A stretch of 63,647 bases of DNA, filler included, from Folioceros fuciformis (lineage: Eukaryota), in the NCBI GenBank assembly GCA_049999805.1. It is 4 parts of 4 records of this genome, joined end to end, with 100 filler letters (N's around TTAATTAATTAA, not from the genome) between each part and the next. Parts side by side here need not be neighbours in the genome. Positions count along the whole stretch, not along the records: positions 38,386 to 63,647 come from JBNGIO010005452.1; 3 more parts are not named here. One strand, written 5' to 3'. The translations under genes and the position numbers were made by a program. A model generated the notes under the pieces. The model was not told the DNA's origin. It saw only the letters and a list, made by a program, of their open reading frames with translations, and did not search any database. Shown here piece by piece: positions 8,771 through 63,647 of the stretch (positions within the stretch are counted from its first letter, which is position 1; each line of letters starts with the position of its first letter).

Positions 8771-10193
8771 CGGGTGGAAAGTCAAGAAATATCATCAGCA
8801 TGAAGGATCGACTGTTTGTGGGGTCACAAATAGTTGAGAAGGGGAAAATATGTGGAAAGTGAAATTTTGGGATACAGGATAGGCTCCTATCCTATCCTAT
8901 CCTATCCTTTTGAGTGTTTTGCCCAACAAGCGGTTAAGTGTGTTTCTTCTTTCTCTTTTGTGTTTGTTGAAGCCTTGTTTTGTTTTTTTTTTAATCTTTG
9001 GTGGTCAAGTTACGAGTCAATCATACCTATGCGTGTTGTAGGTGTGAAATGTCAATGTCCAACCAGACTTCGCTTGATTATTCTATTATTTGTGTCAAAA
9101 GGAGTGAACCCATTCAGATAGGTAGTTTGATTTTTGTAGGTGACATCCGGCCATCAAGAGTGTGAGTGTTTTGAAGTGTTGTTTTGTCAGTCCTACAAGT
9201 TAGTAGGAGAATAAAATCCTAGGTTTAATAGGATAATAAGTGTCAAGTGTTAGTTAATGTTAGTTAACTGTCCATGGATGATAAATCTTCGTGGTAGGTA
9301 GGTAAGGCAACGAAGGGTTGTCAAGAACTTAAGGAAATCAAAGGAGATTTTGGGACACGTATTAGCATGCATAGTGGAAGTAAACAACCAGGTGTAAACA
9401 TGTGTGGACTACTTACCCTTCACAGCGAGTGGAATCACCAAGTAGACTCTCACCTTATGCTTGCTCTTCAACACTGGAAGGTTGTTTGCCTACCTCAATT
9501 CATGTGGAGACAAATTTCAAATTGGCTAGAGCACGAAGTGCGTTGTGCTCAAGGGGCGAGCTCCTGATATACACAGTGGAGGTTTCAAAGGCCAGGGAGC
9601 GTAAGAGGTTTGATTTTTCGATGTGTGCAGAACAGGTGGATTCTCTGGCCCTTGGTGTTTTCAAAAATTGGCAACTGCCTATAAAAGATGGCCAAGGCTA
9701 TCAAAACGAACCAAGCAAGGCAAAATGACAAGACTCACATGAGAAGTGGGAAAAGTCACTCTTAAGAGGGATGCGTACCCATAGCATATATAAGGGGATC
9801 CGTTGGATTTGGAGGAGTTGGAGCTGACCGTGGAGGAAGAGAGGATTCACCTACACAAAAAAATCTTAATGATCAATCGAGGATTGCCAAGAGGAAGGCC
9901 ATTGAGCCCCATGATGATGATCAAGCGAAGGTGAAGAAAGCCATCTCTCCCATGTAAAAAATGGAAGGAAGACTATGATATGGATGGTGAAGACTTTGAA
10001 TGGGAAGAGGTACCCTAGCAAGAGGAAGAAGAGTGGGCGCGAGTGTTAAGCATGATTAATATTGATATTAATTAGTGCTAATCCAGCTTATTNNNNNNNN
10101 NNNNNNNNNNNNNNNNNNNNNNNNNNNNNNNNNNNNTTAATTAATTAANNNNNNNNNNNNNNNNNNNNNNNNNNNNNNNNNNNNNNNNNNNNG

Positions 10194-10392: not shown

Positions 10393-11245
10393 TGTCACGC
10401 TCTCGATTCCTAGACCCAGCTAGATTTCTAGGGTCGGATCCAGAATTCGTGAAGGAGCCGTCTTAGATAGGCTGTCTTTAGGTTCAATGTCCAGGGCCTA
10501 AGAAGGCTGGTCTTGNNNNNNNNNNNNNNNNNNNNNNNNNNNNNNNNNNNNNNNNNNNNNNNNNNNNNNNNNNNNNNNNNNNNNNNNNNNNNNNNNNNNN
10601 NNNNNNNNNNNNNNNAGGCTGTCTTTAGGTTCAATGTCCAGGGCCTAAGAAGGCTGGTCTTGGTTCAGGCCAAGAAGGCCCAAACAACAGACTCTAACTA
10701 CTTCCTAAGGTAAATCGGCAAATATCCTAATTATTCTAATTACCCTAGCTTAAGTAACGCTTTTAAATAGCTCATCTAAGTATACTTTATCTAACATGCC
10801 TTTTCTCATACCCGTTCAAGTTCACACCGTCATAATTGGGAATTGGGATTTTTGTGGGTACCCTATCTGGTGCCTTAGACCTAGCAGGGTTNNNNNNNNN
10901 NNNNNNNNNNNNNNNNNNNNNNNNNNNNNNNNNNNNNNNNNNNNNNNNNNNNNNNNNNNNNNNNNNNNNNNNNNNNNNNNNNNNNNNNNNNGTAAATTGG
11001 TAATTATCCTAATTATTCTAATTACCCTAGCTTAAGTGACGCCTACAAATAGCTCATTTAAGTATACTTTATCTAGCATGCCTTTTCTCATACCCGTTCG
11101 CGTTCGCACCGTTATAATCGAGAATCGGGATTTTTGTGGGTACCCTATCTGGTGCCTTAGACCTAGTAGGTTCCAGCCGTCTCTGCAGCGTCGTTCTCCT
11201 TGCTGGTGATCGTCACGGGCGTTCCTGCTCCTGGCGATCGTAACA
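10393..11245 (-). repeat. 3' LTR of the chromovirus (gapped, partly duplicated across N runs), preceded on the minus strand by the polypurine tract GGGGGAGAA
   Basis: The minus strand reads GGGGGAGAA-TGTTACG...GTGACA, and the sequence matches 16522-16830. Confidence 0.85.
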
Positions 11246-14200
11246 TTCTCCCCCACTGCAAGAGGCCTGGTCCTCCAGGCCCTCCAGCTGCTGGCTGAGG
11301 TGGGGAAATCGTCTGCAGACATCTTCTAGCTCCCAACTGGCAGAAGAGTCTGGTTCCTGGCTCCATCCAACCAAGTAATCACGGATAGATCGGTTTATGA
11401 GGTGATGGGTGCGTACCTCCAGGATTCTGTCGGGCTGGACAAGGTTGGTGAGCTGGGGATGGCGGGGTGATCTGTTCCGCTTCTGTGTCCTACTTTCTGG
11501 TTGAGGGGGTGTAACTGATACTGGGGGTTTGGTGGTCGGGTTGGTTGTTGTGGGAGAGCTTGGAGAGTCGTCCTGCGCTGGTGGAGTAGCAAGACTGTTT
11601 GTGGCGGTTAGGGCTTCCAGACTGTCTCGAGTGGCGGGGTCTGCAGGTGGCGGCGGGTCGAGTTGGGCCGGTCTCTGGATCACTAGCTTAAGCATACTCA
11701 CATGGAAGGTGTGACACATGCGCCACCCGGTAGGCAGCTCCAGTATGTAGGCAACTTCGTTGACCTTGCGTAAGATCCTGAAGGGTCCTGCAAATCGATA
11801 CACCAACTTGTGTTTTTGCTGGAGAAGTGACGGATACCTGTGAGGGCGGATTCGCAACCACACCAGTTGTCCGATGCTGTAGGAGATTTCCTGCTTGTGC
11901 TTGTTGCTTGATTTCTTGGCCTGGTCTTGAGCTGACAGGAGATTTTGCTTAGCCTTGTAGACCTCATGCCAGATGTCCTCTACAACCTCGACGACACTTC
12001 TCCACTTGGCGTCGCTAGCTGGCCAGAGTCCGGGTGGTGGTGGATTCTCGCCATACAGCAATTTGAAGGGGGATACTCTTGTGGCGGCGTGCTTGGAGCT
12101 ATTGTAGGCAAACTCGAGGAGGGGTAAGAGTTCCTCTCACTTGCCTTGCTTGTCTTGTGTGTAATGCCGCAGCATGTCTTCAAGCACTTGAATTTGACGC
12201 TCTATCTGACCATCTGACTTGGGGTGGCATGTGGAGGACAAGCTCTGTCGGATGCCTAGGGTTTCAGTGAAGGATCGCCAGAACCCTGCTGTAAACTTGG
12301 GGTCCCGGTCTGAGACAATATTCTGGGGGCACCCGTGAAGCCTGAAGATCTCTTTTGTGAATATGTTGGCCAGTCGTGGAGCTGTAACGTTGGAATTGAC
12401 TGGAATGAAATGGCAGCACTTGGACATTCTGTCCATAACCACCCATATGCTGTCCTTTCCTATACGAGTGCGGGGAAGGGCAGTCACAAAGTCCATGGAG
12501 ATGGACTGGAATCTTCCCTCAGGTATTTGTAAAGGTAACAACAACCCTGGTGTTTTCTGATGCTCTGGTTTTGTCTGTTGACAGGAGGTGCAGCTTCTAA
12601 CCCATTGTATGCAATCATTTCGCAGGCCCTCCCAGTGGAAATGGGTTTTCACCCGCTCATAAATTTTGTCAATACCTAGGTGTCCAGAGATGGGAGAGTC
12701 GTGCAGGATCCCTCTTTGGGTCTCCTTCAGCTGTTTAGGAATTCACCAGTTGACCCTTCTTGTACACACAAGCGTCTTTGAGTTGGTAATTCTGCATCAA
12801 AGCTGTGGGAATGCCTTCTGCTGTGTCTTGTACTAACTGCTGGTAGATCTGTTGCAGGTGTGGATCTCCTGGGATGGCTGCTCGGACGAGCCTGATGGTA
12901 TCTAGTTGAGAGGTCATCAGAGTGAGAGCTTGCCTGCTGAGGGCATCTGCTACCGAGTTAGAGGTTCCAGTGATGTACTTAATCTCAAAGTTAAAATCAG
13001 CTAAGTATTCTAACCACCTCCGCTGTCGTGCATTCAAGTTGGGTTGGGTGAAGAAGTGCTGGAGGGAATGGTGATCCGTGTGCACTGTGAACCTCTGTCC
13101 CAATAGGTAATGTCTCTAGACCTTGAGTGCATGGATGATGACAAGCATTTCTTTGTCATGAACTGGGTAATTAACTTGTGCTCCCTGGAGTTTGTGGGAC
13201 TCGTAGGCAATCGCCCGTCCCTCCTGGGACAGAACAGCCCCAAGGGCAAGATCTGATGCATCTGTGTGCACATGATAGATCCCCTTGGGATCTGCCACCG
13301 CCAAAACCGGCCCTGAGCTCAGAGCCTGTTTCAGTTGGGTGAAGGCTAGCTGTGTTGCTGCATCCAGATTGAAAGATTTGCTGGGGGACTGTTGGTTGCT
13401 GGTGCGTTGGTGAGCCCCATGGGCATAACCACCCACTCATAGTGGCCATGGCGGGTTCTGAATGCTGTCTTGTGCTCATCCCCTTCCTTAACCCGTATCT
13501 GGTAGAAGCCAGAACGTAGGTCAATCTTGGTAAACCATGTAGAACCATGTAGCTGGTCTAGAATCTCATCGATTCTACGCATTTAGTACATGTTCTTCAC
13601 TATGGCCCTATTTAGGCCTCTGTAATCTATACAGAGCCTCCAGCCACCATCTGGCTTGGCCACTAGCAGCACCGGGGCTCCATAAGGTGAGATAGATGGA
13701 CGCACAAAGCCTTGAGCCAAGAAGGCGTCAACTTGTTTTTTTATCTTTGCATTCTCCATGACTGACGTTCGGTATGGTGGAATGCTTACAAGTTTTGAGC
13801 CTGCTACAAGGTCAATGCTATGGTCCACTGGTCGCCTAGGAGGAAGCTCTGCGGGGTCAGCAAACAACTCGTTGAATTCCGTCAACAGTGACTTCATTTC
13901 CTCAGGAAGGGCTTCTTCCTCTTGAACCTTCTTCTCTGCTCGAGTTTTTGCTGTGCCTTCCAATGGGGAGACCTTTTTCAGCTTGGCTATATACAAGAAG
14001 CTGCCATGGGCAGTTGCTTTACGTAAGGTTGAGACAACGAACAAGTGTTTGTCGGGGATGTAGGTTTCTCCTACTAACTTGTATTGCTGGTGGCCCACTT
14101 GCAGACTTACTACATTGTTCAGCTAGTCGATCCTAAGGTGCTGAGAATCGGCAGCTAACCAAGGCTTTCCTACGATCACATCGTGGACTAGGCTAGGCAT

Positions 14201-16507
14201 CACAATGAGCTTTAGCTCCTCAATGTACCCCCCCCGGGAAAGTAAGGTGAGCTTCTACCCACTTCTCTGAGCTAGTATCCTTCTTCCCTAAGGCTGTCAC
14301 CACTGTGGATAGCTGACTGGAGTCCTGGATGTGTAGATTTGCTCTATGAGCCGCAGCTTTAGAGATATAGTGGTGGCTAGCCCCACCGTCCAGTAGGGCT
14401 GTGACCGTGACGCCCTCCAACTGCATCCTGAACTTGAGGAGGACATGGTGCAGGGTACAAGCATTTAACAAACAGCAACCATTGCAAGCTTTCGGGGCAC
14501 CTGATGAGGGCTCTTCTACAACTTCCTTGAGGGTGACCAAATGGCTGCTGCGGGGGTAGGGGTTGCTGCAAACGGGGCCGTTCCTGGTGGTGTTGCCTGT
14601 CTCCTTCAACCAAGCAATGAACTCCTTACGGTGTAGGCAATTTTGAGAACCATGGTCAGTACCTGCACAAGTAAAACACATTTTTTTGTCGTTGTATTCC
14701 TTCTTCTCCTCTTCTGCCAGGATCTTGAACATAGGTTTTTTGTTCACCACATTGGCTGTCCTCCCAAACTTCGGTCTCTGACCCGTGGGTGTGCCCAAGT
14801 GCTTGTACTTGTTCAGGCCATAGTTCATGGCAGCTCGGATCGCCTCTACCAGAGTTCCAAGATTTGTCTGGTTGACGTCTGTGCGTAGTTCAAACCGGAG
14901 TCCGTCAATGAACTTTTCCACCTTCTGCTCTTCGTCCAGCCACGGCATATCCAGGGTGAGTTGGAGGAACTTGTCGCAATACTCCTGCACACTGCCTTGT
15001 TGATAAATTTTCCTAAACTGATGATACAGCTCCTTCCTATGGTTGACGGGAAGGAACTGTTCCAGGAAAATTTGGCGGAATAGGGGCCATGAGTACACCG
15101 GGGACTCCACTCCAAGGTCCACCTGTTTCTCCCGCTGTCGCCACCAGCGATATGCATATCCATCCAAGGACATCACACTGAACTGAATCTTCTGGAGGCC
15201 ATCCTTCTAACTGGCTCCGAGGTACTTGTCCATCTTATCCAGCCAGTCGTACACGCTTTGGGCTTCCTTGGCTTGGCCGTCAAAAGTGGTGGTCCTGATT
15301 TTCAGTTGGAGCTCTCGATCTAGTTGTGGTTTGGGCTTGAACAAGTACTCCTGTTCTTCAGGTGCTCCTCCTCCTGCTTTACCTCGTTGTCGCTCCTAGT
15401 GTTCATACCGCATCAGCTGTAACCTCTTGACCATCGCCTTGATGTCCTTGTCCTCCTTCTCTGCAGGTGTGAGTTCGATTTCGAGCCTCCTCTTCTCTTC
15501 CTGCTTGACACTCAACTCCCTATCTTGGGAAAGCCCCGAGGAAACTCCCTTCATTTCTCCAATCTCCCTTTTGCTTGCAGTGCCTTCAACAGGCGTCTTC
15601 AACCGACGAGTGGAGCCGAGTGGAGGCGTTGGGGGACTGGACGTGGGAGGCGGGGACTATTCCAACGACTGGAGCACCCCATCGAGTTGTCTTTCCAGAC
15701 GGGCTTGTCCCTCCCCCACTTGCGACTCAACCCGAGTCAGCGAGGTTTCTACCTTCTCCAGTTTCGAGTTTTGCCGAGACAGGGCATTGTACAGTTCAGC
15801 ACAAGTGCGTTCTACGCTCTCCGTTTTGTCTTCCAACCTTTGTAGAAGGTCGCCCGGTGTCGGTTCTCCCTGTTCGAGGGCTGACCTACCTGGATTGTGG
15901 ATGGGTGCAGGTTGGGATTCCGTGTGGGCGCTCCGCTTCCTCAGGTGGCCTAGCCTCCTGGCCACAGGTTCACTGGCGTATTCAACGGCACTCGCATCCA
16001 CTCCCACCTCCCCCTTCTCGTCTTCCATCGCCGGGAGGGTGTCCGCCATCCCGCGGCGTCGCCTTCCAAGTTCTTCCTCCCGCAATGGAGCATGCAGGGT
16101 GAATTCTTCTTCTTGCCGGGTTCTCGATCGCAGGCGTCCTGCGATCCCTCTGGGTGAGTCTTCTCCCTCACTCCCGCTGGACGTCGCCCGCAGGACAATC
16201 TGCAACCTCCTGGGTACGAAATCGCTCATGGTTTTCTTTGTCCTGCAGGAACAAGGTGGTGCTGTCTCTTCTATTCAGGATCTTTCCAAGGAAATTTCGA
16301 ACTCCTCTCTCTGGTCCGCTAGAGCACTAATGTTGGGCGACCCAACAGGTAGGCTCCCTGGTTGGGCGCTGCTGTTTCTCTTCAGTATCTTGCGCCTGAC
16401 TCTGTGAATTCTTGATGTTGGTCAGGTCGCCACAAATCGCCGCTGGTTCTGGTGTGAGGCGCCCTGCCAACTCTACTCCTCTTCGATTGGATTTGCAGTA
16501 GAATTCG

Positions 16508-16830: not shown

Positions 16831-17239
16831 GTTCATGTAACCCAGGCCTGAACGTCTCTCCCTTCCCACGACAATCAGTTCCATTTTTGTTTCTCTTGGC
16901 CATCCATTCTAACCAAAAGGCGGCACTGCTTTAAGGATACAAGATTTGATTGGGTACGTAGCGTAGTCACCAAGAGAAGCAGTTGGACTCATTCTCAAAA
17001 AAGTTGTGAATCACCCTAGACCCTGAACAGGTCGCAGCTACATCACTCACGAGTGTGGAAAGAGAACAGTAACCGAACCAACTCAGTTTATGTACGAGCT
17101 GCGCATCATCGGCCTTGCTGAGACGTCGGCGGGAGAGGNNNNNNNNNNNNNNNNNNNNNNNNNNNNNNNNNNNNNNNNNNNNTTAATTAATTAANNNNNN
17201 NNNNNNNNNNNNNNNNNNNNNNNNNNNNNNNNNNNNNNA

Positions 17240-37463: not shown

Positions 37464-38385
37464 GAGGTACATTCTTGTGTAGGTCTGCATGTAGACCGGG
37501 TCCACGCTCTTGGATCGTGTAACAAGTCCTAGGTGCAGGTACCATCGTCAGCGACGTCCTTCACAATAGGATGGCACGGGAGCCTTTTTGAAATCCCGAC
37601 AAGCCGATGGTCCACTTCACAAATCGATTCGTGGTGCCCATCCGCTAGCCCGAAGCTGGAAGCTGGAAGCTGGAAGCTGGAGGGAGCGACGCCTGAACTG
37701 TCTCCTGTCCCTGGAGGAGACGATACCTCAAAGCCAACCACGGTGACGTAGAACATGCATATTCCATGTAACAATATAATACTATGAATTTAATAATTCT
37801 CTATAATTTATTTACTTTTACTACAAAAATATTATAAACAAACTCCACCTCTAAACTAGAGGGTTACCCATTACGGACGAACTGAGTTAAATAATCTTAA
37901 TTATAACATAGATTTTTGAAGCTGGAATGAGAATACTACATTGCTTACGAATGTAAATATATAAGGCAGTAAAATTAACATGAAAGTTGGGTGGTTGCCA
38001 TTTTATGGAACTAAAATAGCTTAGATATTGATATGCATTTAGGATTAAGGAATCAATTTTGGATATTCATGTGTCATGCATTAATTTCAAATTTTTTAGT
38101 TTCAAAGTACTACACAAATTATGTCTAGGATTAAGATGTGAAGGTATGCAAATTTTATCTAAGATTAGAATATAAAAGATAAAATTTATTTCAATTGCAC
38201 TATTCTTTGTTGTATTATTCTTAATACTTTCTTGCTATCACAAAGCACAAAGATGGTGTTGTGATGGTGTTGTCACAACATAGGGNNNNNNNNNNNNNNN
38301 NNNNNNNNNNNNNNNNNNNNNNNNNNNNNTTAATTAATTAANNNNNNNNNNNNNNNNNNNNNNNNNNNNNNNNNNNNNNNNNNNN

Positions 38386-41300
38386 ATGTCGTTTCTGGAA
38401 TGCAAATCATTACGCATCCTGATTTTGCATGGGATAAAGGACCCCTCTTTCATGAAAGCGTTGGTGCAGTCTTTGGAGAAAAATGCATCTTTGAATGAGC
38501 TCAGGTTTTTGTTTTGCTGGGAACTCGACGATGAGCTGTTCAGAGAGTTGATGCAGTCCCTCCAAAACAACACCACTTTACGGAAGATCTTGGTAGCGGG
38601 TACAAACTGGGCTAATGAGGGAAAGCAGGCCATCATCAACGCGACGTTGGCACGCAATGTTAGTCACAGGGCCTACTGGCCTTCGCTTTTGGAGGGGCAC
38701 GAGGCTGTGAAGCCCAGGGACGGGCGTCTTTTCCTGTGCGGTGCACCGTACGCAGGGAAAACCACTCTCCGAAACACCATGACCACCGCATGGCGCGCAT
38801 CGCAACCACACACATCACATTCTACAGGAGGCGCATCAGCTAACCAAGTCCAATTGCGGGAACAACTGTCTCTCGCTTGGAGACAGTTGTTCGGTAATGT
38901 TCCACGCACAGGAGCGGCATCACCCAGCCAGGTGGGTACTGTCCCCAGAACGGAAGGTATAGAAATCGAAGTGCTGCGCAACGACGACGAGATGGAAGTT
39001 ACCATTTGGGATTTGGCTGGACAAGCTCACTACCGAGTTCTGGAAGACTACTTGTTCCCCATCTTCAACCAGACATGTGTCTTCTTGTTCACATTCAACC
39101 CGTTTGATGCCGGCAAGCTTAGTGGACCCCTCCTGTCTACTGAAATGCTGGTGGACAAGTTCAGAAACAGCTTCAAGTTCTGGCTTAGGTTCATCCACTC
39201 TAATTCTCGCAACGTGGGTTCCTGTTTGCCTCGGGTATTTGTGGTTGTCACTCATAAGGATCAGATGCAGGCTCTGGAGGCTGAAACACTAGTCGAACTG
39301 CTGCAACCAGTCGTGGACGAGTTGGCCCAGGATTTTGAGGAGGTACTGCATGTTACGACAACCCATCTATTCTTCATGGATGCTCGATCTACGCACACCG
39401 TGCACCCCGTGCTGGAGGAACTATTCCAATCATTTCGACAGCTATTTGCACTTCCTCTGTTTTGGGTTCCGGAGCCATGCAACCGACTCAGTACTGTTTT
39501 GACACAGTGGGTATCTCGAAATCCAGCTGAGCCTATTGTCACCAAGGAGCGATGCAAAGAGTTGTTTCAACAAGATGATGAGCAACGCCTTCAAGCAATT
39601 CTTGCCTATCTCCACGATGCAGGCAGAGTCATCTGGTTCCAAGATGTAGATGCTGTGGTGGTGAATCCACAATGGATGAGTCATTCGTTTCTGGGCCGCC
39701 TCATCCAGCGCCTAGCCGGACAGCCTTGCTTGGGAAGATTCAATGATGGATTTGTTTCTGAACGTTTCCTGAATGGAACCTTGAAGGACATCCTCGACCA
39801 TATGCAAGTGCAGGGGATTCGTGTTGAATATCTGGTATTATTGATGAAGAGACTAAACTTGTGCTACGAACATCATGCCAATCGAAGGGCAGGATTCTTG
39901 GTTCCCTTGACCTTGGATGACGCTGAAGGTAAAGCTCTTCAAGGGAAACGACAGTTGGATTGGAATGGTGGGGCGGCGTCCAAGTACAGTTACGTAGGGA
40001 GGCGGCTACAATGCCGAGATGGAAGAAAAACGTTTCTCGGTCCAGGCTGCTTTCTAAGATTCCAGGTACGTTGCCTTCTGAGCTGTCTCTTTTGTTAGTC
40101 ATTTAACCTCTCTTGTGTTTCATGACATGGCCAATGCTTGTGCGTTGCAGGTCAAGTTACGACAGATCTTGTTGGATGGGCTGTGCGGTATGCAGTCTCA
40201 TCAGTATAGCATTGCGCGTAACTTGATCAGATTTAACTACAATGGTATGGACGTGTTTTTGGAGAGCAGTGGGGATATTTGGGACGAGACCGGGGACATT
40301 GGGGATCGTGTTGACATTTTGATGAGGTCACTCAAGAGCAAAGACGAAACGATCCAGTTTCTCCAGCAGAGCATTGTTTCGGAACTGAGAGCATTTTGTG
40401 CCTCTCCTGAAGGTAGTCCTGGAGTTGAACTAGTAGAAGGGATCATCAGGACTAAGTGCGTGGAGAAGCTCACACTGTGTATTCACCGGCACAGTCAATC
40501 CGTTCTCAACCAGCATTTGATGAAGTTCCTTCTAGTTCATCACAAAAGTCATCCAGTGCAGACTTCCTCCGGCTCGGATTGCTCCGATTATCAATGGTGC
40601 TGGCCAGAAATGCCTGAAGCTGGTCTATCCCTTGTATACGAGAAAGCCAGGGATCTGTTAAGTAGCGAAGAGGTGCAGTCTGCTTTGCAGCAGTGTGGGC
40701 CCCGTCCATCCCTCGACTCAACGAGTGGCCCTTCAGCCGGAACAAGTCAGCCACAGGCACCGTCTATACTGAAGTTAGGGAAGGAACCTTCATATCCAAA
40801 CGAAAGGGCGAAAGCAGGTCTCCGGAGAGGGCTTGCAATGATAGTCAGCATGGAAGACCACAGACATGGGGGACAGGTAGACAGAGGGCGACTTGAAGCA
40901 CTCTTCGAGATGTTGAATTTTGATACAGATATCGTGGTGAACGGTCCTAAGGAAGGGAAATCAAGGTTGAAAGCCCTTCTCAGGGTCCCTCGCCTAGCAG
41001 AAGACGAGTGCTTTCTGTTTTGCGTGAACGCCCATGGTGGGACTGATGAAGACGGAAGACAGTATGTTTGTTCAGGTGAAGCAGACAAGGCGGAGAAGCT
41101 TTATGTTGAAGAAGATATTTTGAAGCCCATTGCTGAATGCCAATATTTGGCACACAAGCCTAAGGTGGTTGTCATAAATGATAGTCGAGGCACTGGCAGT
41201 CTGGTGAGAAGCATGAAGGTACAAGGGTCGGGCCCCGCCGACCTTACCACTACCAGCAAAGCCCAGGGGTCAGGCGATGAGGGAAGCCAGGGTCTGAGCA

Positions 41301-41554
41301 AGAGAATTCGACCCTTGTACCAGGCGAAAGATTTTCTCATCGTCTTCTCTACCAGTCCTGAAGATTTATCCTTCAGAAATGTTAAGGAAGGCACAAACTT
41401 CATCATAGCTTTCATGGGAGCCATCTGTGAGCACTCTCGTACCGAAGATGTGGTGAGCATTCTAACAAGGGTGACTCGCGACGTCACCGAAATGCAGAAC
41501 GTGCAATGTCCCCAGGTCCTCACCACACTTACTGGAAAGCTATACTGGTCTTAA
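38386..41554 (+). CDS. TORNADO1-like LRR-Roc-COR protein with C-terminal caspase-like (peptidase C14) domain, copy A; 5'-truncated by a gap. Exons <38386-40065 and 40151-41554, at least 1027 aa
   Basis: Last LRRs, then Roc motifs GAPYAGKTT, RTEGIEI, WDLAGQ, VTHKD and MDAR. COR/TRN1-like motifs YVGRRLQC, FLRFQ|V, FCASPEGSPGV and ARDLLS. An 85-bp phase-0 GT-AG intron. Caspase motifs NAHGG and KPKVVVINDSRG. Confidence 0.9.
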
Positions 41555-43489
41555 TCACTCCATTCTCTGCAAATGCCTGGTTGGCTAGCGTGAGGAGCGT
41601 GTGGTCAGGGCCTGTAGTGCCCTCCATCAAGTGTCAGGTATCAATTCTCTCTAGCCACATACTCTACTGCCTGTTTATTGGTGTGTCGAACTGCCTCTGG
41701 TCCGACCTTCTCACGTCTCCTCCCGTTCTCTGCCTGATTTGGCAAGAACGTCCTCTCACAGGGTCCTGTCTTGATGTCGAACTGAAGATGGGTCGCGGAG
41801 GCCATGTGTAGGGAGGGAAGATGGTTCTGTGTTTCAAGAAGCAAGTCCAAGTTTGGGGTCTGCACTTCTGGTGTATACATTGTTCAGTACACCAGCGTGA
41901 GGATGTATGCTCCATCTTCCCTTCCCGACCAGGAAAAAGCTAAGCTGGGACACCATGTCTCATGACCTGGCGCCGGGAGCTTGTGCCTTCGTGTCACAGT
42001 GATACCAGGCAGCACGCAGCGGTAGGTCACGGCTTGTCATAACTGAATTAGGGTTGGTAGGATGTTTTAGGGTCGGTGCTGTGGCCATAGTTTATTCTGG
42101 TCTGGACACCTTTCTCTCTCTTCCTCTATCAATAAAGCCTGGGTTCTCTCCACTAAGCATTGACCGACATACATGGACACGTACTGTTTGTAGTATTCGT
42201 GTCCCGATTAGCAGCAGCCAAGAACTCTCTCGATCGCGAAGGAAACGTGTGGGACGGGTAAGCTTCAGAGCGACCGACCACCAGTGGAATACAGTACGGT
42301 GTTGCGTCGTACTGGGAGCTGCTGGTAGTGACTTACCTGACATCTCTCTGTCGGTGCAGATTCAAGAAATAGTAGACAGACCTGGTTTGCGGCGTGTTGA
42401 GCTATGTTTCCGATTGTGCAGTTACCGTCGGAACTGGCAGGAACTCCAAAAGCAGACTTCAAGTAAATTCTGGTTGATGAATCTCCAGTTGCCTAATGCA
42501 CAGGTTGATTTCAAGTAAGTTGTTCTTCCCGGGATCCTTCAGGATGTCAAGGGGAATTGTGAACGGGGCGTATCTCGGTGTTGATAGGCAGAGGCTTTAT
42601 TGGCCATGCTGTGCCACTCGTTTCGGCTTGCTGAATAGTAATGTGTATGTCGTTGCCCCAGAGACGCAGATTCTCAGCCCTGATGGCTGGCTGCAGAAAT
42701 GAGTCAACTTGGCCAGCCAGCAAGCCAACTTGCCTTTCCTTCTGACTGATGTACCGGGCCAAAGGCACAGTGCTGTGTTGTGTTGTGACTCGAGCTCTTG
42801 TAGGGCAGAGATGTGGAACATGGATGCCAGCCATCCAACAGAACGGCTCATTCGTGGCCTGTCTTGCACTGCCCCCGCTCCAATGGCATACCTGACCCCT
42901 CCACTGACGCCTGACCCCTCCACTGACGGCTAACGTGAGTCATGATCGGGGCAATGCCAATGGCATCATATCATGCTCAAATGAGGAGGTGCAGGAGGAA
43001 TTTCTTCTACGCCCTACCATGTGCAGCAGACAATCTCTGGACGAAAGGTTCCAAACCGGCTGAAAGTGGAGAGGACGAAAGGTCCCAAACAGGCTGAAAG
43101 TGGCGAGAGAGGATGAGACTCTGTTTTCTCTCCTTGTTTGGCACACACTGAATAGGATAATTGCATAGTTTGTGTGAATGGAAGAGTTGCATAGTTTGTA
43201 TGGGTAGTGGACGTGAGTTTGTGTACTCCTTCCGCGCGGTCTGCCGAAGAATCGCCCTCTACATCCTTCGGCGTGCTTGCCTTTATGTTTACGATAGCTG
43301 AGCTAACCTGAGTCCAAGGGGAGGCAGACCTTTTGATGCACACACAATTCAGAACGATATACAGACTGTTTCTCATTCGAATACGCAGAACGATATACAG
43401 ACTGTTTCTCATTCAAGGTACAAATAATGTGGGATTGGAAGCAACCCAGACGGGCAGTGTCATTCAGAGGAAAAAGGTCCAAAGGAAGG

Positions 43490-43905
43490 GATGACGATAG
43501 CTTTCTGCTTTGCATTAATGGCATGGTGAGACTGAAGAAGATGGTTGAGTGTATGTTTGCTTAGGTGAAGCAGACAAGGCGGAGAAGCTTCGTGTTGAAG
43601 AAGTTATTTCGAAGCCTATCGCTGAATTTTGAAGGCGGGAATTTGACAAACAAGCCTAAGGTGGTTGTCATAAATGTTTGTCGATGCACTGGCAGTCTTG
43701 CCAAAAGCGTGAAAGCGCAGGGTTCAGGCACCGCCAACCTTGCCACTAGCAGCAAAGCCATGGGCTCAGACGTGGAGGAAAGCCAGGGTCCCAGCAAGAG
43801 AATTCGACCCCTGTATTATGCGAGCGCCTTTCTCACCGTTTACTCCACCAGTCCTAGAGACGAATCTTTGAGAGATGTCCAGAAAGGCCCAAACTTCATC
43901 ATAGG
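43490..43905 (+). pseudogene. Isolated caspase-domain relic paralogous to copies A and B
   Basis: Aligns by eye to about 41000-41410 (FLLCIN..HG, GEADKAEKL, KPKVVVINVCRCTG, SKRIRPLY, YSTSP, GPNFII), with stops and frameshifts. Confidence 0.88.
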
Positions 43906-45121
43906 TTTTGTTTTTGTATGTTTGCTTAGGTGAAGCAGACAACGCCGAGAAGCTGCGACGGCGTGCGGGAAGCCGCTGCGGGTGGGATCCTTCTGTACCT
44001 CGTTGCCCGTGGCTTAGGCCACCACGTGATCTCGTCGTCACTTGCTTAACAGAGAGAGATATGAGTGATGGTCATGGAGATCACCCCTCATGAAGTTAGG
44101 ATGAGGTCTTCAAGAGTTCAGACCGTTAGGAACCTTTTTGTTTTTATCGAATTTGGCCCGCTGCTGGAAGAGTGTCGGATCGGTGCATGCTAGTCTTCGG
44201 GACTGGAAATTCAATGCCAGAACTACAGCAGAAGGGAATAGTAGGATGAGGTTGATTGTGCGAAGCCGTGATGCAGACCTGATTTTGTCCCCGCGGCCCG
44301 GTGACGGAAATGCGTCAGGTGCATTTCAAGCCTGGCGAGCTTGCCAGTGCCACACAAGTAAGGCAGTGGAAAGCGTGCGCATCTGCCTGGTTTGAAGAAC
44401 TGCCTGGTGTCGCAGCCCTTGTGTTGCTTGTTCATGGTTTGACCTTTCGGCTTGCTTTCAGGTGGACCAAGGGCATGTCAGGCAGTGTGGAACAATTTCA
44501 TTGCGGACCGCACTACTGGCAAGGTATGATGCTCTGGTGGCTGAGGATTAGCTGTTGAATTCGAGAGCACCCAGGCACGGACTGACTCGCACTTAGTGCA
44601 ATGCAAAACGAGGAGACCTGGTTGTTTTGAATCCTGGTCGAATCAGGTGCAGTGCAGATAAGCTGCCCTCAACCGGTCATTCAGCCAGGGACTCTACCCT
44701 CAATCGGAGGAAAGAGTCCAGGGACGGCGGAAAGCTGAAGGAACGCGAGCGAGCGTTGTACATGTAACGATGTCCATGGATGCAGTGACCTTTCCAATGA
44801 TGGACTGGCTGGTGACAGGGAAATTTGTGGCATGGAATGCACTGGTTCCTGGGAATGCAACGAAGGGGCTCGGCTGTTCTGTATGGACGTTTGTTCTGTC
44901 TGGACAGAATGCATCAAGAGGGCCTGATTTTGGCGGAGTATGGCACTTCTGCGTGCATTCTCAATGGCTTTGCAAGCTCTGGTGCCTTGACGAAGATCAG
45001 GGAGCCGCACGGAATGTGCCTGAGGAGTGTTGTTTGAGGATCCGTGGTGGAAGAAGAGCCTGCAAGTGCCACATGCGCAGCAGCTGAAGATGCGGCGTCT
45101 TTCTAGGATGGCAGGGACTGG

Positions 45122-48100
45122 TTGTCCCCCGCGTCCCTGTGCTGGTACGGAAGGGGAGGAGTTTCGGGGAGGGGCGTGCGGCGATACCTGGCGCATCCCT
45201 CTGTTGCTCGTTCCTGCTCCCTGTATCGCGGCGTGGCAGGCGAGCTTGGCCCTGTCGGGCCTGGAGGATACCAAGTGGGTGTGATGCCTGAAACAGTGAG
45301 CAAGCTGTGTGAGGAGGGTCGGCTCAAGGAGGCTGTTGAGGCTTTGGGAATTCTGGTGCAAGTAGGCTGGCACGTTTCCAAGTCCCTCGTGTATACGGTG
45401 CTCAGGGGGTGTGTTGAACAGAAGGATCTTCTTCTAGGGCGCCGTGTGCACGCTTTCACGGTTCAGAAGGGGTACCAGTCGGACACTTTCCTGGGCAACC
45501 ACGTTCTGCGATTGTACGATTTTCATGGCAGATTGCAGGACGCGATGGATGTGTTCACCGTTGTTGCCAGTCCAGATGCCTTCATGTGGTCTTCCATAAT
45601 TTCGGCGCATGTGTAACGGGGACTGCACAGGGAGGCTATAGAGCTTTATCGTAGGATGCGCAGGTCGGGTGTGGAGCCCGATAGCCATGTTTTCGTGGCT
45701 GCCCTCCAGGCATGTGGAAAGGGGGAAGATTTGATGGCTGTCCAGGAGCTGCATGCCGAAGTATTGGCCAGTGGGTTTGGGCGGGATTTGTTTGTTTGTA
45801 ATTGCCTGGTGGATGTGTATGGGAAGTGTGGCAGGCTGCGAGAGGCTAGAAGGGTGTTTGACGGACTCGTTGAGAAGGACGTTGTGACGTGGACTACCAT
45901 GATATCCGGGTACTCCCAGCAGGGCATGGGCAGGAAGCATTTCTTGTCTACAGTGCTATGCTGGAAGGACGGGTGGCTGTACCCAGCTCTGTGACTTATG
46001 TCTGCCTCCTGCAGGCATGTGCAAGTGTGGACCCCCCTGCTCTGGTGACGGGGAAGCAGCTCCATGAGCTAATCAGAGCACAAGGACATCTGGCTAATGT
46101 GTCTGTAGCCAATAGCTTGGTGAACATGTATGCGAAGTGTGGCAGCCTAGAGGATGCCCACAGATTGTTTTGTGATATGGGTCAGAAAGACGTGGTGACG
46201 TGGACTGCTCTAGTTGCAGGGTATTCCTTACAGGGCAAGGGCAAGGGCCAGGAGGCCCTTCAGCTCTACAGTGCCATGCAGGCAGAAGGCATCTCTGTAC
46301 CAAATTCAGTGACATTCGCATGTCTCCTGCAGGTATGTGCAAGTGTGGGCACACTGGCCTTAGATAAGGGGAGAGATCTTCATGCTCAAATCCGAGAAGA
46401 AGGACATTTGGCTGATGTGTCAGTAGCCAATACTTTGATAAGCATGTACGCAAGGTGTGGCAACCTAGAAGATGCTCGGCATGTATTTGATGGACTCGTG
46501 GAGACGAACGTTGTGACGGGGAGCGCCATGATAGCTGCGTATTCACAGGGGTGTATGGGACAGGAAGCTCTTGATCTTTACAGGGTGATGAAGGAAGAAG
46601 GTACTGTCACAGCCAATTGTGTGACGTTTGTGTCCCTGCTGCAGGCATGTGCAAGTTTGGGCATACCAGTAAAGGTCACTGGAGAGTAGCTTCATGCGGA
46701 GATAAGGGAAAGAGGGTTTGACGGGGATCTATTCTTGGCCAATAGTTTAGTCAACATGTATGCAAAGAGTGGCAGCTTGAAAGACGCGAAGAGAGTGTTT
46801 GACGCATCCGAAAGGAAAGATGTGATGATTTGGACCACTCTACTCGCAGAATATTCCCAGCCGGGCATGGGCCAGGAAGCCCTTGCTCTTTACGGAGCAA
46901 TGCAAGAGGAAGGCATTGTTGCACCTGATGCTGTGACATTTGTGTGCCTCCTGCACGCATGTGCAAGTGTGGGATCCCCAGCTTTGGAGATGGGGAAGCA
47001 GCTTCATGTGCAAATTACAGAACAAGGGTACCAAGCTGATGTATCTGTAGCCAACAGTTTGGTGAACATGTATGCAAAGTGCGGCAGTCTGGAGGATGCC
47101 CAGGAAGTGTTTGATGGACTTGGTGACAAAGATGTGGTGACATGGACTGCTCTGGTTTCAGGATACGCACAGCAGGGCATGGGCAAGGAAGCCCTTCAAG
47201 TGTACGGTGCCATGGAAGAAGAGGGCATAGCTGTGCCAATTTCTGTGACACTGACGTGCCTCCTGCAGGCCTGTGCGTGTGTGGAGGCCTTGGCTTTGGA
47301 GATGGGGAAGCAGCTGCACACCCAAACTCAAGAACAAGGGCTTGAAGCTGATGTGAACGTAGCCAACAGTTTGGTGAACATGTACTCAAAGTGTGGTAGC
47401 CTAGATGATGCGTAGAGGGTGTTTGGCAGATTAGATCGGAAACATGTAGTGACGTGGACAGTTCTCATTGCAGGATATTCACGGCAAGGAATGGGCGTCA
47501 AGGCCTTTAGCGTTTACCGTGCTATGCAAGAGGATGGGGTAGCTGTGCCTGATTGTGTCACATTAGTGTGCTTCCTGCAGGCGTGTGCAAATGTGGCAGC
47601 TTTGCAGTTGAGAAGGCAGCTACCTGTGCGGATCAAACAGCAAGGATTTGAAGCTGATGTAATTGTCGCTGGCAGTTTGATTAACATGTATGCAAAGTGG
47701 GGAAGCATGCTTGAAGCACGGCAGGTGTTCGATTCATTGTCTGACAAAAACACCGTTGCCTGGAACGGACTGATTGCAGGATACAGCCACCAAGGAGATA
47801 GTGAAGAGGTTTTGGACTTGCTTCGCAGAATGAGAGTGGACGGTATACTGCCAGACATCATAACGTTCCTTGGTGTGCTGACAGTCTGTGGTCATACAGG
47901 TCAAGTGAGCAAGGGGTGGGAGTACTTCGAAAGCATGAGCAGCCACAGTGGCATCACCCCAACGGTGGAGCACTACGCATGTATGGTAGGTCTCCTGGGC
48001 CGTGCAGGCCGACTGGACGAGGCACAAGGCCTGGTCAGGAACATGCATGTACCACCTGATGCCACAGTTTGGCACACTCTGTTGGGGGCCGCTCAAAAGT

Positions 48101-48330
48101 GGAGGAACGTGGAGGTTGGACGCCATGCTTTCAAGCAAGCAGTGAAGCTAGACAAGAAAGATGCAGCAGCCTACGTGTTGATGTCCAACATATACACCAG
48201 AGCCGAAATGTGGGAGCAAGCACAGGCCTTGCAGAGGAAGAGGGTGAGAATTAAGTAAGGCATGAAGCAGACGGGACAAAGGTGGTGGACAAACATGGAC
48301 GGCCCTGTGCACAGTTTTTGTTGTTGGGGA
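45122..48330 (+). pseudogene. PLS-class pentatricopeptide repeat gene with E/E+ domain, disrupted
   Basis: Many NSLVNMYAKCGSLEDA / DVVTWT repeats; E domain HYACMVGLLGRAG...AAYVLMSNIY. Stops at 45614, 46687, 47413 and 48256, and a frameshift near 45930. Confidence 0.92.
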
Positions 48331-59713: not shown

Positions 59714-62700
59714 ATGGCGGAGCAGGAGGACTATGACTGCCGGAAAAGCTGCAACAGCTGCTGGCAGATCTGGAAGGGCACGCCTTGACCAAACTCCCCG
59801 ACTTGGACGGAGAGGAGTACGGCGATTTCTTCAGAGAGGGAGCTTCAACGAGCACGGATGGCAGGCACTGGCTGGTGCGCAAGCGGGTATTGACAGCTAT
59901 TGGCCAGTGCCGCAGTCTCCGCGGCGGCCTGAAGATATCTGAACGGTGGGGGGTCGGCATCGGTCGGGAGGATGAATGCGCGATTCTGTTGGAGGGCCTG
60001 GCATCCAACCCTTCCCTGGAAGCTCTCCATCTGTTTGGGTGCTCAGGTTTTGGAAGGCTGGCGGGTTGCAAGACCCTGGGCCAGCTTATTGCTTCCAGTG
60101 GCAGCTTGCGACGGCTGAAGGCACGCGCGATCATGCTTGATGCCGCTGGACTTGGTGCCCTGGTCGATGGCTTCAACCAGGATTCTGCCCTGGAGTATTT
60201 GAACCTAGGCTATAACAAAGTGGGAGATGGTGAAGGGGCACAGCACCTGGCTCGCATGCTGGCCACCGCTCCCGGTCTCAATGTCCTGAATCTGCGCCAT
60301 ACCGAAATGGATGAGGCGGGAGCCCAGTGTATTGCAAACGCTCTTCCGCTCTGTGCCTCGCTGCGGGAGCTTTCCTTGGATGATAACTATCGGGATGAGC
60401 GTAATGCAGTTAGGGGTTCTGCACAGGGCAACCCGGGGCCCCTGAGCACTGTGTTGAAACTGGCTTTCACCCGTGCTGATACTAAGGCTGATGCTCCCAT
60501 ATCTGGGGTCACCAAGCTGACGTTGGATATCGGGAACAGAGAGGAGGCAGGCCTGGCCGACGCGCTGGCCGGAATGTTGCGCACCAACGATTGTATCACG
60601 GACCTTTCGATCAGCGGTTTTGTTGTCAATTTCGGCCTGGACGTCTGGCACCACAACTCCACCTTCTCCATACTTAAGTTCTCCGACTATGAGGGTGACG
60701 AGTCGTTAAGTGAATTTTCGATGTCGTTTCTGGAATGCAAATCATTAGGCAACCTGTTTTTGGAAGAGATTAGGTGGCCGTCTTTCATGAAAGCGTTGGT
60801 GCAGCCTTTGGCGAAAAATACATCTTTGAATGAGTTGTATATTCGGTATTGCTGGAGACTTGACGATGAGCTGTTCAAAGAATTGATGCAGTCCCTCCAA
60901 GTCAACACCACTTTACAGAAGATCCAGATAACGGACACAAACTGGGGGAGAGAGGGAAAGCAGGCCATCATCAACGCGACGTTGGCAAGCAATGTTATTC
61001 ACAGGGCCTACTGGCCTTTGCTTTTGGAGGGGCAAGAGGCTGTGAAGACCAGGGTCGGCCGCCTTTTCCTGTGCGGTGCACCTTACGCAGGGAAGACCAC
61101 TCCCCTAAACACCATGATCACCGCATGGCGCGCATCACTCAACCTGTCGCTTCTTGTCACCCTCCGGGAACAACTATCTTCAGCTTGGGGATGGATATGT
61201 TCCTGCAGCCGTTTCGGAACTGTGCCGAGAACGGAAGGCATAGAAATCGAGGTGCTGCGCAACGACGACGAGATGGAAGTTACTATTTGGGATCTGGCTG
61301 GACAAGCTCACCACCGAGCTCCGCAAGACTACTTGTTCCCAAGCTTTAACCAGACACGTGTCTTCCTGTTCACATTCAACCCACTTGGTGCCCACAAGCC
61401 TGGCGAACCCCTTCCGTCCGATGAAATGCTGCTGGACACGTTCAGAAACGGCTTCGAGTTTTGGCTTAGATTCAACCACTCCAATTCTCGCAACGTGGGT
61501 TCCTGTTTGCCTCGGGTATTTGTGGTTGTCACTCATATGCATCGGATGGAGGATCTGCACGCGAAATTACTGGTTGGTCTGCTGCAACCAATTGTGGAAG
61601 ACTTGGCCAAGATTTTCGAGGAGGTACTTCTTATCAGGACAACGCCTTTCTTCATGGATGCTCGATCTAAACAAACTGTGCAGCCTTTTCTGGAGCAGCT
61701 ATTCCAATCATTGCAAGAGCTATTTGCGCTTCCTCTGTTTTGGGTTCCGCAGGCGTGCAATCGATTGAGTGCTGCTTTGACTCACTGGGTATCTCAAAAT
61801 CCAGGTCAGCCTCTGGTGACGAAGGAGAGATGCGAAAAGCTGTATAACGCACATGATGAGCAACGCTTTCAAGCAATTCTTGCCTATCTGCACAATGCAG
61901 GCCGGGTCATCTGGTTCCAAGATGCAGATGTAGATGCTGTGGTGGTAAATCCACACTGGATCAGTCATTCATTCCTGGGCCGCCTCATTCAGCGCCTAGC
62001 AGGACAGCCTTCCTTGGGGAGGTCGCGAGACCGTGGATTTGTTGCTGAAGACCTCATCAAAGACACCTTGGCCCGGATCCTCAAGGACACGCACGTGGCC
62101 GACAGGATTCGTGTTGAAGATTTGGTGTCATTGATGATGAGACAGACTGAACTTGTGCTATCGGGATGATGCGAATCCAAGACCTGGATTCTTCGTTCCC
62201 TTCACCTTGGATGACGCCGAAGGTAAAGCTCTTCGTGGGGAACGACAGCTACACTGGGACTGGGAAATGGCGGGCCAGTACAATCACGTGGGCAGGCGGC
62301 TACAATGCCGAGATGAAACCAAGACGTTTCTCGGTCCAGGCTTCTTTCCAAGATTCCAAGTATGTTACCTTGTGAACTGTCTCTGTGATCTGTCTCTGTG
62401 ATTTATCCTCTCTTGGGTTTCCTGACAATATCGATAACGGTTGTGCATTGCAGGTCAAGTTACGACAGATCTTGATCGATGGGCTCTCCGGTATGGAGTC
62501 TCATCAATATCGCATTGCCCGTAACTTGATAGAATTTAAGTATGATGGTATGGATATATTCTAGGAGAGTAGCGGGGATATTGGGGAGGAGACCGGGGAC
62601 ATTGGCGATCGTGTGGACATTTTGATGAGGTCCCTCAGGAGCAAGGACGATACGATTCACTTTCTCCAGAAGCAGATTGTTGCGGAGTTGAGAACATTTT

Positions 62701-63647
62701 GTGCTTCTCCTGAAGGTAGTCCTGGAGTTCAGCTTGTAGAAGGGATCATCAGGACCGAGTGTGTAGAGAAGCTCACACCTTGTATTTACCGACACAATCA
62801 GTCAGTTCTCACACACAGGTTGATGGAGTCCTTTTTCAAAAGCCCGCAGACCTCGCAGATTTCCCCCGGTTCGGATCTGCCACCTCACTTCCACGTCTGG
62901 CCAGCTGCAGAAAGGCCTGAAGCCAGTCTACGCTGTGCACAAGAGGATGCCAGAAACTTCTTAAGTAGCGGTGAGGTTGAAAATGTTTTGAAGACGTGGC
63001 GGACAGGACTGGCGCTCAATGCAACAAGTGGACTTTCAGCTGGGTCAAGTCACTCACAGGGATCGCCTCACATGGAGTCAGTGCAGGAACTATCATATCC
63101 AAACCGAAGGGTGAAAGTAGGTGAGCGGAGAGGTCTGGCAATAGTTGTAAGTATGGAAGCAAACAGACCTGGTGGAGCGGCAGACAGGGGGCGACTTCAC
63201 GCTCTGCTCGAGAACTTGAAGTTTGATACAGACATCGTCGTGAACCGTCCACCTGAGGAAGTGAAATCAATGTTGGGAAAACTTCTCAGGGTCCGTCACC
63301 TAGCACAAGACGACTGCTTTCTGTTTTGCTTGAACGCCCATGGTGGGACTGATGAAGAAGGAAGGCAGTATGTTTGCTCAGGTGAAGCAGACAAGGCGGA
63401 GAAGCTTTATGTTTTTTTTTTTTTTTTGAAGCCCATCGCTGAATGCCAGTATTTGGCACACAAGCCTAAGGTGGTTGTCATAAATGCTTGTCGAGGAACT
63501 GGCCGTCTTGTCAAAGGCATGAAAGCACAGGGGTCGGGCCCCGCCGACCTTGTCACTACCAGCAAAGTCGAGGAGTCAGAGGTTGAGGGAAGCCAGGGTC
63601 TCAACAAGAGAACTCGACCCTTGTATCAGGCGAAAGATATTCTCACC
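59714..63647 (+). pseudogene. TORNADO1-like LRR-Roc-COR-caspase gene, copy B (disrupted; runs off the window end). Exons approx 59714-62359 and 62454->63647
   Basis: RI-like LRRs, GAPYAGKTT, WDLAGQ and the same intron position (FPRFQ|VKL). Caspase NAHGG (His 63339) and KPKVVVINACRG (Cys 63489). Lesions: frameshift near 59735, 4-bp CAGA insertion near 62143, TAG at 62562. Confidence 0.9.

Follow-up and report, generated by a model that had tools for sequence, protein, structure and literature searches.

The subject of this study is a gene copy, here termed copy A, that lies in a window of 63,647 nucleotides (the whole stretch of DNA analysed, made of four joined parts of assembly GCA_049999805.1 of Folioceros fuciformis, with positions 38386 to 63647 taken from JBNGIO010005452.1). 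Copy A encodes a protein of predicted LRR-Roc-COR-caspase plan (LRR, leucine-rich repeat), whose caspase-type domain carries Ser in the place of the catalytic Cys, within the motif N-D-S-R-G (AAT GAT AGT CGA GGC, 41177-41191). Judged by its sequence, it is a pseudo-caspase, in that it is homologous to an active enzyme but has a different residue at a catalytic position, and the exchange of Cys for Ser together with that of the preceding Ala for Asp makes it most likely, by analogy with known systems, that the protein cannot cleave. We tentatively interpret copy A as a retained and transcribed pseudo-protease, whose role would be that of a partner without catalysis for the paralogues that have the Cys. 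Our confidence in this interpretation stops a little short of even, and it is only slightly favoured over that of a freshly disabled copy. The role of a functional, cFLIP-like decoy is unproven, and caspase-type effectors on plant switch proteins appear to be the more interesting lead.

The active site of copy A

The placement of Ser905 (codon AGT, 41183-41185) in the catalytic Cys column is based on the phmmer alignment with proteins of the PDB, in which 'kpkvvvindsrg' of copy A is paired with 'kpkvlmfpfcrg' of Dronc and 'kpkvffiqacqg' of caspase-8. In the same search, 'nahgg' of copy A falls on the catalytic His motif, and the S1 pocket residues Arg260 and Arg413 of caspase-8 both align with an Arg in copy A. 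The two sites central to the catalytic dyad are the following.

41033..41035, plus strand: codon CAT of the catalytic His855, kept; NAHGG aligned with the His of Dronc and caspase-8
41180..41185, plus strand: Asp904-Ser905, GAT AGT, by alignment, where the family has Ala/Ser-Cys

Relative to the corresponding GCT TGT of a paralogue in the same window (copy B), copy A shows two base changes, at 41181 and 41183, two bases apart. Across 89 homologous domain pieces, the Cys column is occupied by Cys in 87, by Gly in one (P0005) and by Ser in one, and this sole Ser row has a Cys at the position immediately before. Asp precedes the Cys in 0 of the 89, and the His column holds His in 76 of 79 domains. 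With Cys in 87 of 89 homologous domains, Cys is taken to be ancestral and the Asp-Ser of copy A to be derived and unique to it. An earlier note on this DNA had read the motifs NDSRG in copy A, NACRG in copy B and NVCRC in a third, relic copy, had seen the catalytic His of copy A kept at 41033, and had proposed that Cys is ancestral; the motifs are confirmed at 41177-41191, 63483-63497 and 43673-43687, and the alignments support both the His and the direction of change. RNA editing was considered as a means of restoring the Cys and was rejected, for AGT to become TGT would require an A-to-U change in a nuclear transcript, and we know of no plant RNA editing that performs it.

Gene structure and domain plan

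The visible gene consists of 38386-40065 and 40151-41554, separated by one GT..AG intron. With intron 40066-40150 removed, it has 1027 open codons, the number that the earlier note had given, and ends on TAA at 41552-41554; in the frame of exon 2, the open stretch comprises 490 codons (40082-41554).

38386..40065, plus strand: copy A exon 1, visible part, 560 codons; end of RNI-type LRRs, Roc GTPase, COR-A
38740-38763, 39010-39024 and 39250-39261, plus strand: Roc motifs in exon 1, namely P-loop, DLAGQ and THKD
40066..40150, plus strand: copy A intron, 85 nucleotides, GT..AG; intron at the equivalent place in copy B
40151..41554, plus strand: copy A exon 2, 467 codons and TAA; COR-B-like region, linker, caspase domain
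40826..41551, plus strand: copy A Peptidase_C14 caspase domain, p20, linker and p10 (Pfam E 4.3e-22, AlphaFold2, Foldseek)
about 41198-41296, plus strand: disordered inter-subunit linker of about 33 residues in the AlphaFold2 model
38286..38385, no strand: artificial join that cuts off the 5' part of copy A

Peptidase C14 (PF00656) is matched over its full profile (1-233 of 233) at 79.4 bits against a cut-off of 21.4. COR-A follows directly after Roc and reaches 41.7 bits (cut-off 35.3). Roc itself scores 23.1 bits, under the cut-off of 27, and its motifs GAPYAGKT, DLAGQ and THKD are present in order. The region after COR-A matches plant proteins that have Roc/COR-A, or COR-B below the cut-off, and the Roc-COR part as a whole is without a sequence match in the PDB. 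RNI-type LRRs are found in the roughly 330 upstream residues that copy B adds. From the Pfam domains of copy A combined with these upstream LRRs of copy B, the plan of copy A is read as LRR, Roc, COR and caspase. Pfam detects no death-effector domain (DED) in copy B or in copy A, whose first ~330 codons are unseen.

Copy A begins at a contig end, so that its 5' third is unassembled here. The N-terminal 328 residues of copy B have no match upstream of the gap before copy A; since the join at 38286-38385 is artificial, the missing match says nothing about the true 5' end. As an observation apart, copy A has 54 additional in-frame bases relative to copy B within the Roc domain (38800-38920), which encode a repeated VPRT motif.

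Two broken copies in the same window

Copy B and the relic both retain the Cys codon and are both broken, as the earlier note had described.

59737..63647, plus strand, running off the window: copy B, LRR-Roc-COR-caspase, NACRG at 63483-63497; broken
43522..43912, plus strand: relic of a third copy, 125 caspase-domain codons, NVCRC at 43673-43687 (Peptidase_C14 E 1.1e-4)

The motif of copy B, AATGCTTGTCGAGGA, occurs once in the window, at 63483-63497, and that of the relic, AATGTTTGTCGATGC, likewise once, at 43673-43687, with 0 occurrences expected for either (100 shuffles). Between copies A and B, identity amounts to 81.6% at the DNA level and about 67% at the protein level; the p10 part of B falls beyond the window. 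Its lesions are a net insertion of 4 nucleotides after 62137 and an in-frame TAG at 62562-62564, and its Roc G4 motif is degraded to THMH (THKD in copy A). As a third lesion, 16 consecutive T (63412-63427) stand in place of four codons, TTGAAGAAGATATTTT in copy A, such that EEDI becomes FFFF with the frame unshifted; either a true replacement or an artefact of sequencing could explain them. The relic shows a frame change and stops, and its ratio of non-synonymous to synonymous substitution rates (dN/dS) is 0.83. The description of copy A as the only open copy holds within the window; it does not extend beyond the window or to the unseen first ~330 codons of copy A.

Predicted fold and dimer interface

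For the caspase domain of copy A, AlphaFold2 (41-row alignment) gave a model with a predicted local distance difference test score (pLDDT) of 83.4 and a predicted template-modelling score (pTM) of 0.81. A disordered stretch of 33 residues (model residues 134-166) comes directly after the NDSRG strand, as a p20-p10 linker would, and contains two Asp sites that are conserved or nearly so in copy B, at 41234-41245 and 41270-41281, which are candidates for self-cleavage. Every match listed by Foldseek in the PDB is a caspase, the best being caspase-8 (4ps1_A, E 2.4e-16), with template-modelling (TM) scores of 0.65-0.80 to caspases-8, -3, -7, -9, -6 and CED-3; the best 60 PDB sequence matches are caspases as well. 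By sequence and by modelled fold, the nearest solved relatives of copy A are animal caspases (C14A), not metacaspases (C14B).

The homodimer model of the domain scored 0.65, compared to 0.02 for the best of three controls, with a contact agreement between runs of at least 62% and a partner pLDDT of at least 74. Its interface is formed by the last strand (model residues 238-248) together with the preceding helix. In calibration on microbes, 21 of 30 solved same-chain pairs passed the mark applied here, compared to 0 of 23 single chains. Among eukaryotic proteins, 17 of 29 pairs passed, yet only 1 of the 7 that had no earlier solved relative, and 0 of 30 single chains. Since dimers of caspases are among the solved structures, the homodimer may have passed through memorisation by the model, and its pass indicates likeness only and not binding. 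With this reservation, the fold and the canonical dimer interface of copy A are predicted with confidence.

A possible spliced transcript

Three sequencing runs (X1, X2 and X3) contain the gene in the form of short Logan contigs, and X3 is merely guessed to be RNA. Contigs 95-99% alike to the gene make up 195 of 316 in X1, 221 of 347 in X2 and 143 of 217 in X3; as most contigs show only this degree of likeness, near copies or other alleles of the gene exist. Contigs of X3 join 40065 to 40151 with the intron removed, at a depth of 145.7, plus a variant at 212.2, and the intron-less joint is found in neither of the two DNA runs. Given that X3 is RNA by guess, this joint would fit a spliced transcript of copy A or of another copy whose identity to it is 95% or more.

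Some further features of these runs are recorded on their own account. X3 alone has a second GT..AG joint, skipping 147 bases downstream of copy A (42514-42662), and a contig of 439 bases over the relic (43469-43904) with 16 differing letters, so that something downstream of copy A, or a near copy of that region, is present in X3. The bins 42072-42459 are without cover in X3, and a fourth run, X4, is almost without cover anywhere; no inference was drawn from either.

Family and relatives

A HMMER scan of 1.84 billion representatives returned 372 matches at E ≤0.001, the best of which are just 34-36% identical. Named relatives of the caspase domain are from Marchantia polymorpha and M. paleacea, and those of the COR-B region from Riccia, Marchantia and the hornwort Nothoceros. 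A word-index protein search with the caspase region of copy A gave zero matches. A family-profile search identified one longer protein (7947 candidates) and 15 of near length (8000 candidates), and the taxonomic spread of these relatives is thin. Among the relatives, P0163 of Ceratodon purpureus (1147 amino acids) shows caspase, NB-ARC, LRR and Arm domains by Pfam, and the Marchantia proteins P0019 and P0066 show alpha/beta-hydrolase together with caspase; in all three, the His and the Cys of the dyad are both present. These domain assignments place caspase-type domains on several immune-receptor-like scaffolds in bryophytes.

The tree of the domain comprises 78 rows (82 pieces of at least 150 residues minus 4 near-identical members of a Marchantia cluster) and comes from a quick IQ-TREE run with support solely from the Shimodaira-Hasegawa-like approximate likelihood-ratio test (SH-aLRT). 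It places copies A and B and the named plant proteins in a clade of 23 rows (SH-aLRT 98), apart from the other 55 rows, among which is the only named animal protein. In the plant clade, 18 of the 23 rows keep the dyad and an open frame, and 5 are without a dyad residue. P0022, P0171 and P0053 form a His-to-Tyr clade (SH-aLRT 94), and in two of the three the Arg that follows the Cys is Ile as well. In P0005, a fragment with COR-B and caspase, Gly takes the place of the Cys. The His-to-Tyr lineage and P0005 are independent dead-dyad forms; the recurrence of dead-dyad members in the plant clade shows that such forms can persist in the family. When the plant caspase profile was run against 185,579 prokaryote genomes, 26 pattern matches were obtained and 0 were confirmed, which weakly disfavours a close bacterial source of the plant domain.

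Proposed role of copy A

The family is suggested to consist of land-plant receptor-like proteins in which an LRR sensor is coupled, through a Roc-COR GTPase switch, to a C-terminal caspase-type protease. By what is known of ROCO proteins and caspases, Roc-COR would be a dimerisation switch governed by nucleotide, and its dimerisation would turn the protease on by induced proximity, as predicted for bacterial LRR-AP-GTPase-COR proteins (PMC8195603). Copy A has lost the nucleophile and the preceding Ala and keeps the His, both arginines of the S1 pocket, the predicted fold and the strand of the dimer interface. It could then still fold and pair through its caspase and COR domains, presumably also with paralogues, and serve as regulator, sensor or scaffold of the Cys-bearing ones. 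An immune or cell-death role of the family may be envisaged by extension. A wider proposal, which we consider speculative and on balance unlikely, is that non-seed land plants possess LRR-Roc-COR-caspase receptors switched by a GTPase and executed by a caspase, next to the caspase-NB-ARC-LRR type of mosses, with copy A as a heterodimerising, built-in regulator and an independent counterpart of the cFLIP-caspase-8 pair. Copy A would in that case pair with Cys copies via COR and the caspase beta-strand, thereby tuning or redirecting proteolysis.

Retention compared to decay

Whether copy A is retained or decaying was assessed from several measures of constraint, each of which mixes periods before and after the loss of the Cys. 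Columns were taken to be well conserved if 80% or more of the 12 outgroup sequences agree in them, and 38 such columns are visible in both A and B. Copy A keeps 30 of the 38, 7 of its 8 misses are common to copy B, and C905S is the only miss private to A at well-conserved columns of the caspase domain; under a looser rule, the A-private changes in this domain are A904D and C905S only. Over residues 561-956, private departures from the family residues number 3 in A and 11 in B (one-sided binomial p 0.029), and the end branch of the tree is 0.097 for A compared to 0.17 for B. When the substitutions in 98 codons surrounding the active site are divided among three taxa (A, B and the relic), the A branch receives dS 0.161, dN 0.032 and dN/dS 0.20, with a bootstrap interval of 0.03-0.65 and 99.5% of replicates below 1. 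The A branch is thus under moderate constraint, and the signals overall are mixed. The earlier note had left open decoy or regulator versus early decay: the mixed signals make early decay almost as likely, and the regulator role is one that we infer. As to selection on copy A, the low branch value stands for the 98 codons, and the pairwise comparison of A and B (dN/dS 0.52 overall) does not repeat it.

A number of points weigh against the retained pseudo-protease. The pairwise dN/dS of 0.52 is loose for a conserved enzyme (by region, Roc 0.49, COR 0.40, caspase 0.60), and the A-branch value of 0.20 averages in the time before the Cys was lost. Copy B likewise keeps 30 of the 38 well-conserved columns; equal preservation of A and B at these columns implies that the breakage of B is recent, and copy A may just have escaped being hit so far. 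Both neighbouring copies, B and the relic, are pseudogenes. The start of copy A abuts an artificial join, placing the first ~330 codons, present in copy B, outside view. A lone T-to-A change is what the first neutral hit is expected to look like, and the Ser form was found in no other sequence searched and has no known orthologue. Differences between copy A and the overlying contigs, taken from the best-supported 40 of 115 differing places, comprise 26 in coding sequence, 19 of them non-synonymous and 7 synonymous, which is indistinguishable from neutrality (neutral site ratio 3.4:1, p 0.37). Loss of activity and pairing with paralogues are both, moreover, inferred from analogy.

The strongest competing explanation, quite possible although we would not expect it to prevail, is recent disablement: copy A would be a null allele or a just-inactivated member of a birth-and-death cluster, with Cys-to-Ser as a neutral or nearly neutral first hit, the frame still open by chance and the Ser form functionless. 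To the points just given, among which the two dead neighbours, the 19:7 count, the pairwise dN/dS of 0.5-0.6, the equal 30 of 38 columns and the failure to find Ser persisting elsewhere in the sequences searched count in its favour, it can be added that the two base changes, lying two bases apart, could be one mutational event. It is opposed by the A-branch dN/dS of 0.20 with its upper bootstrap bound of 0.65, by the 3 private departures in A compared to 11 in B, by the intact frame, intron and Roc motifs of copy A, and by the long-lived dead-dyad lineages in the family. Just 1 of the 26 coding differences falls in the caspase domain, which makes up 24% of the codons (p 0.008); this too speaks against a freshly disabled copy, with little weight as it derives from the best-supported 40 of 115 differing places.

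Alternatively, the loss of the nucleophile could itself have been selected, if an auto-active allele was harmful and the dead protease is a suppressor lesion, with the rest of the protein maybe in use. Death-effector domains on switch proteins are costly if mis-activated, as seen in the autoimmunity caused by plant receptors that combine nucleotide binding with leucine-rich repeats (NLRs). The only A-private miss at the 38 columns being the nucleophile, with just the preceding residue added under the looser rule, is as expected for selected loss, and both copies that keep the Cys are the broken ones. However, the tests performed here do not separate selected loss from neutral loss or from a regulator role, the association in three copies is anecdotal, and 18 of 23 rows of the plant clade retain the dyad in an open frame. 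We consider this explanation improbable.

More improbable still is that the Ser codon reflects an error of assembly or sequencing, or a chimera of collapsed paralogues. The draft nature of the assembly with its artificial contig joins, and the near copies or alleles implied by contigs only 95-99% alike, would allow for it. Against it, the bin of the active site (41102-41295) is covered in X1, X2 and X3; among the best-supported 40 of 115 differing places, 0 lie between 41009 and 42022; and two particular substitutions in neighbouring codons would have to be erroneous at once. For bases 41180-41185, the evidence thus comes from contigs, not from raw reads, and the contig cover is consistent with the Ser codon without proving it.

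Finally, the retention of His, both S1 arginines and fold might allow Ser905 to act as nucleophile with His855, rendering copy A an active serine-type caspase, and the exchange of Ser and Cys is tolerated in some other protease clans. We regard this as the least probable explanation of all, considering that MCA4 with its equal His/Ser pair is inactive on the substrates tested (PMC3220528), that cyanobacterial Tyr/Ser orthocaspase variants are regarded as inactive (PMC6426788), and that Asp904, unique among 89 domains, would introduce a negative charge beside a pocket for acidic P1.

Comparison with known systems

Pseudo-enzymes of family C14 are already known (cFLIP(L), MCA4, pseudo-orthocaspases), and what is new here is the setting, a caspase-type domain on a land-plant LRR-Roc-COR protein. 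Regarding the active site, MCA4 of T. brucei is the closer precedent for copy A than cFLIP. It is described as keeping the His, having Ser for Cys, being inactive on every substrate tested and yet functional; weak activity is regained in the S219C variant, and MCA4 is processed by an active paralogue (PMC3220528). The likeness to copy A extends to family C14, the kept His, the Cys-to-Ser exchange and the retained fold. Unlike copy A, which is of caspase type, fused to LRR-Roc-COR and known from its sequence alone, MCA4 is a stand-alone, calcium-dependent metacaspase (C14B) with basic P1, whose function was shown by knock-down.

The cFLIP analogy, by comparison, is functional only. According to PMC7586951, neither dyad residue remains in cFLIP(L) (Arg315 for the His, Tyr360 for the Cys), and these changes are conserved across vertebrates; cFLIP(L) is recruited by tandem DEDs and pairs with caspase-8 via the canonical dimer interface. 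It shares with copy A a caspase-type domain without nucleophile that arose from duplication beside active paralogues, and copy A is modelled to dimerise via the same strand as in the cFLIP(L)-caspase-8 interface. In contrast to cFLIP(L), copy A keeps the His, has a Ser, shows no DED by Pfam, is attached to an LRR-Roc-COR module and has no known conservation of the Ser. Of the original proposal of a cFLIP-like pseudo-caspase, the absence of the nucleophile in sequence terms is therefore retained, and the likeness to cFLIP, with the His kept, no DED and a Ser without orthologue, is not.

Concerning architecture, the bacterial LRR-AP-GTPase(Roc)-COR proteins, predicted conflict systems, carry at the C-terminus an effector of variable type, a caspase being one of the options (PMC8195603). 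They resemble copy A in the order of rapidly evolving N-terminal LRRs, Roc-type GTPase, COR and effector, and differ from it in being prokaryotic and known by prediction only, whereas copy A has a spliceosomal intron, a plant contig and a pentatricopeptide repeat (PPR) gene as neighbour. Pseudo-orthocaspases of cyanobacteria and alphaproteobacteria carry, in a C14 p20 domain, His-to-Tyr and Cys-to-Ser with the structure predicted to be unchanged, and the Tyr/Ser variants of cyanobacteria are regarded as inactive (PMC6426788). Both types of change recur in the plant clade but in different members, while the pseudo-orthocaspases are prokaryotic, have basic specificity, changed both residues together and are conserved across phyla. 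The nearest comparison within plants is with Ceratodon KC19_5G008800 and the Marchantia Mp_6g00900 group, which belong to the same 23-row clade and are likewise immune-receptor-like fusions; their identity to copy A is only 29-36%, their caspase domains are joined to different partners, and His and Cys of the dyad are both retained.

In the literature covered, with subscription journals mostly outside coverage, no paper was found on caspase-type domains of land-plant ROCO or NB-ARC proteins. In the parts available, PMC10952240 and PMC11218826 mention caspases for bacteria and animals only. That plants lack caspases and have metacaspases only is a routine statement, made for example in PMC12521494. 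An animal-caspase-like domain on an LRR-Roc-COR switch in a land plant would stand against that view. If these domains are death or immune effectors, they would link the receptor-protease designs of plants, animals and bacteria. The occurrence of a natural dead-site copy beside Cys-bearing ones offers an experimental entry point. If copy A is merely decaying, a rapid birth-and-death turnover of the family is documented instead.

Genomic setting

The three runs of N in the window (10093-10192, 17139-17238 and 38286-38385) share the layout of N44, TTAATTAATTAA and N44. The insert TTAATTAATTAA is a six-frame stop linker, and the contigs are chained artificially; genes across these joins need not, therefore, be genomic neighbours. 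The contig from 38386 to the end of the window is free of N runs and bears, besides copy A, a PPR gene with E motif. The further contigs of the window contain mTERF, class III peroxidase, GDSL lipase and a Ty3 element. The setting of copy A is land-plant nuclear DNA.

Two elements of this setting are observations in their own right. The Ty3-type retrotransposon (11216-15206, minus strand) encodes gag, aspartyl protease, RNase H and integrase, each in a broken frame of its own. The PPR gene (45874-48255, plus strand) comprises 271, 241 and 280 open codons in a single frame that is broken by only two in-frame TAG, at 46687 and 47413, and is either a young pseudogene or the sign of a peculiarity of TAG here.

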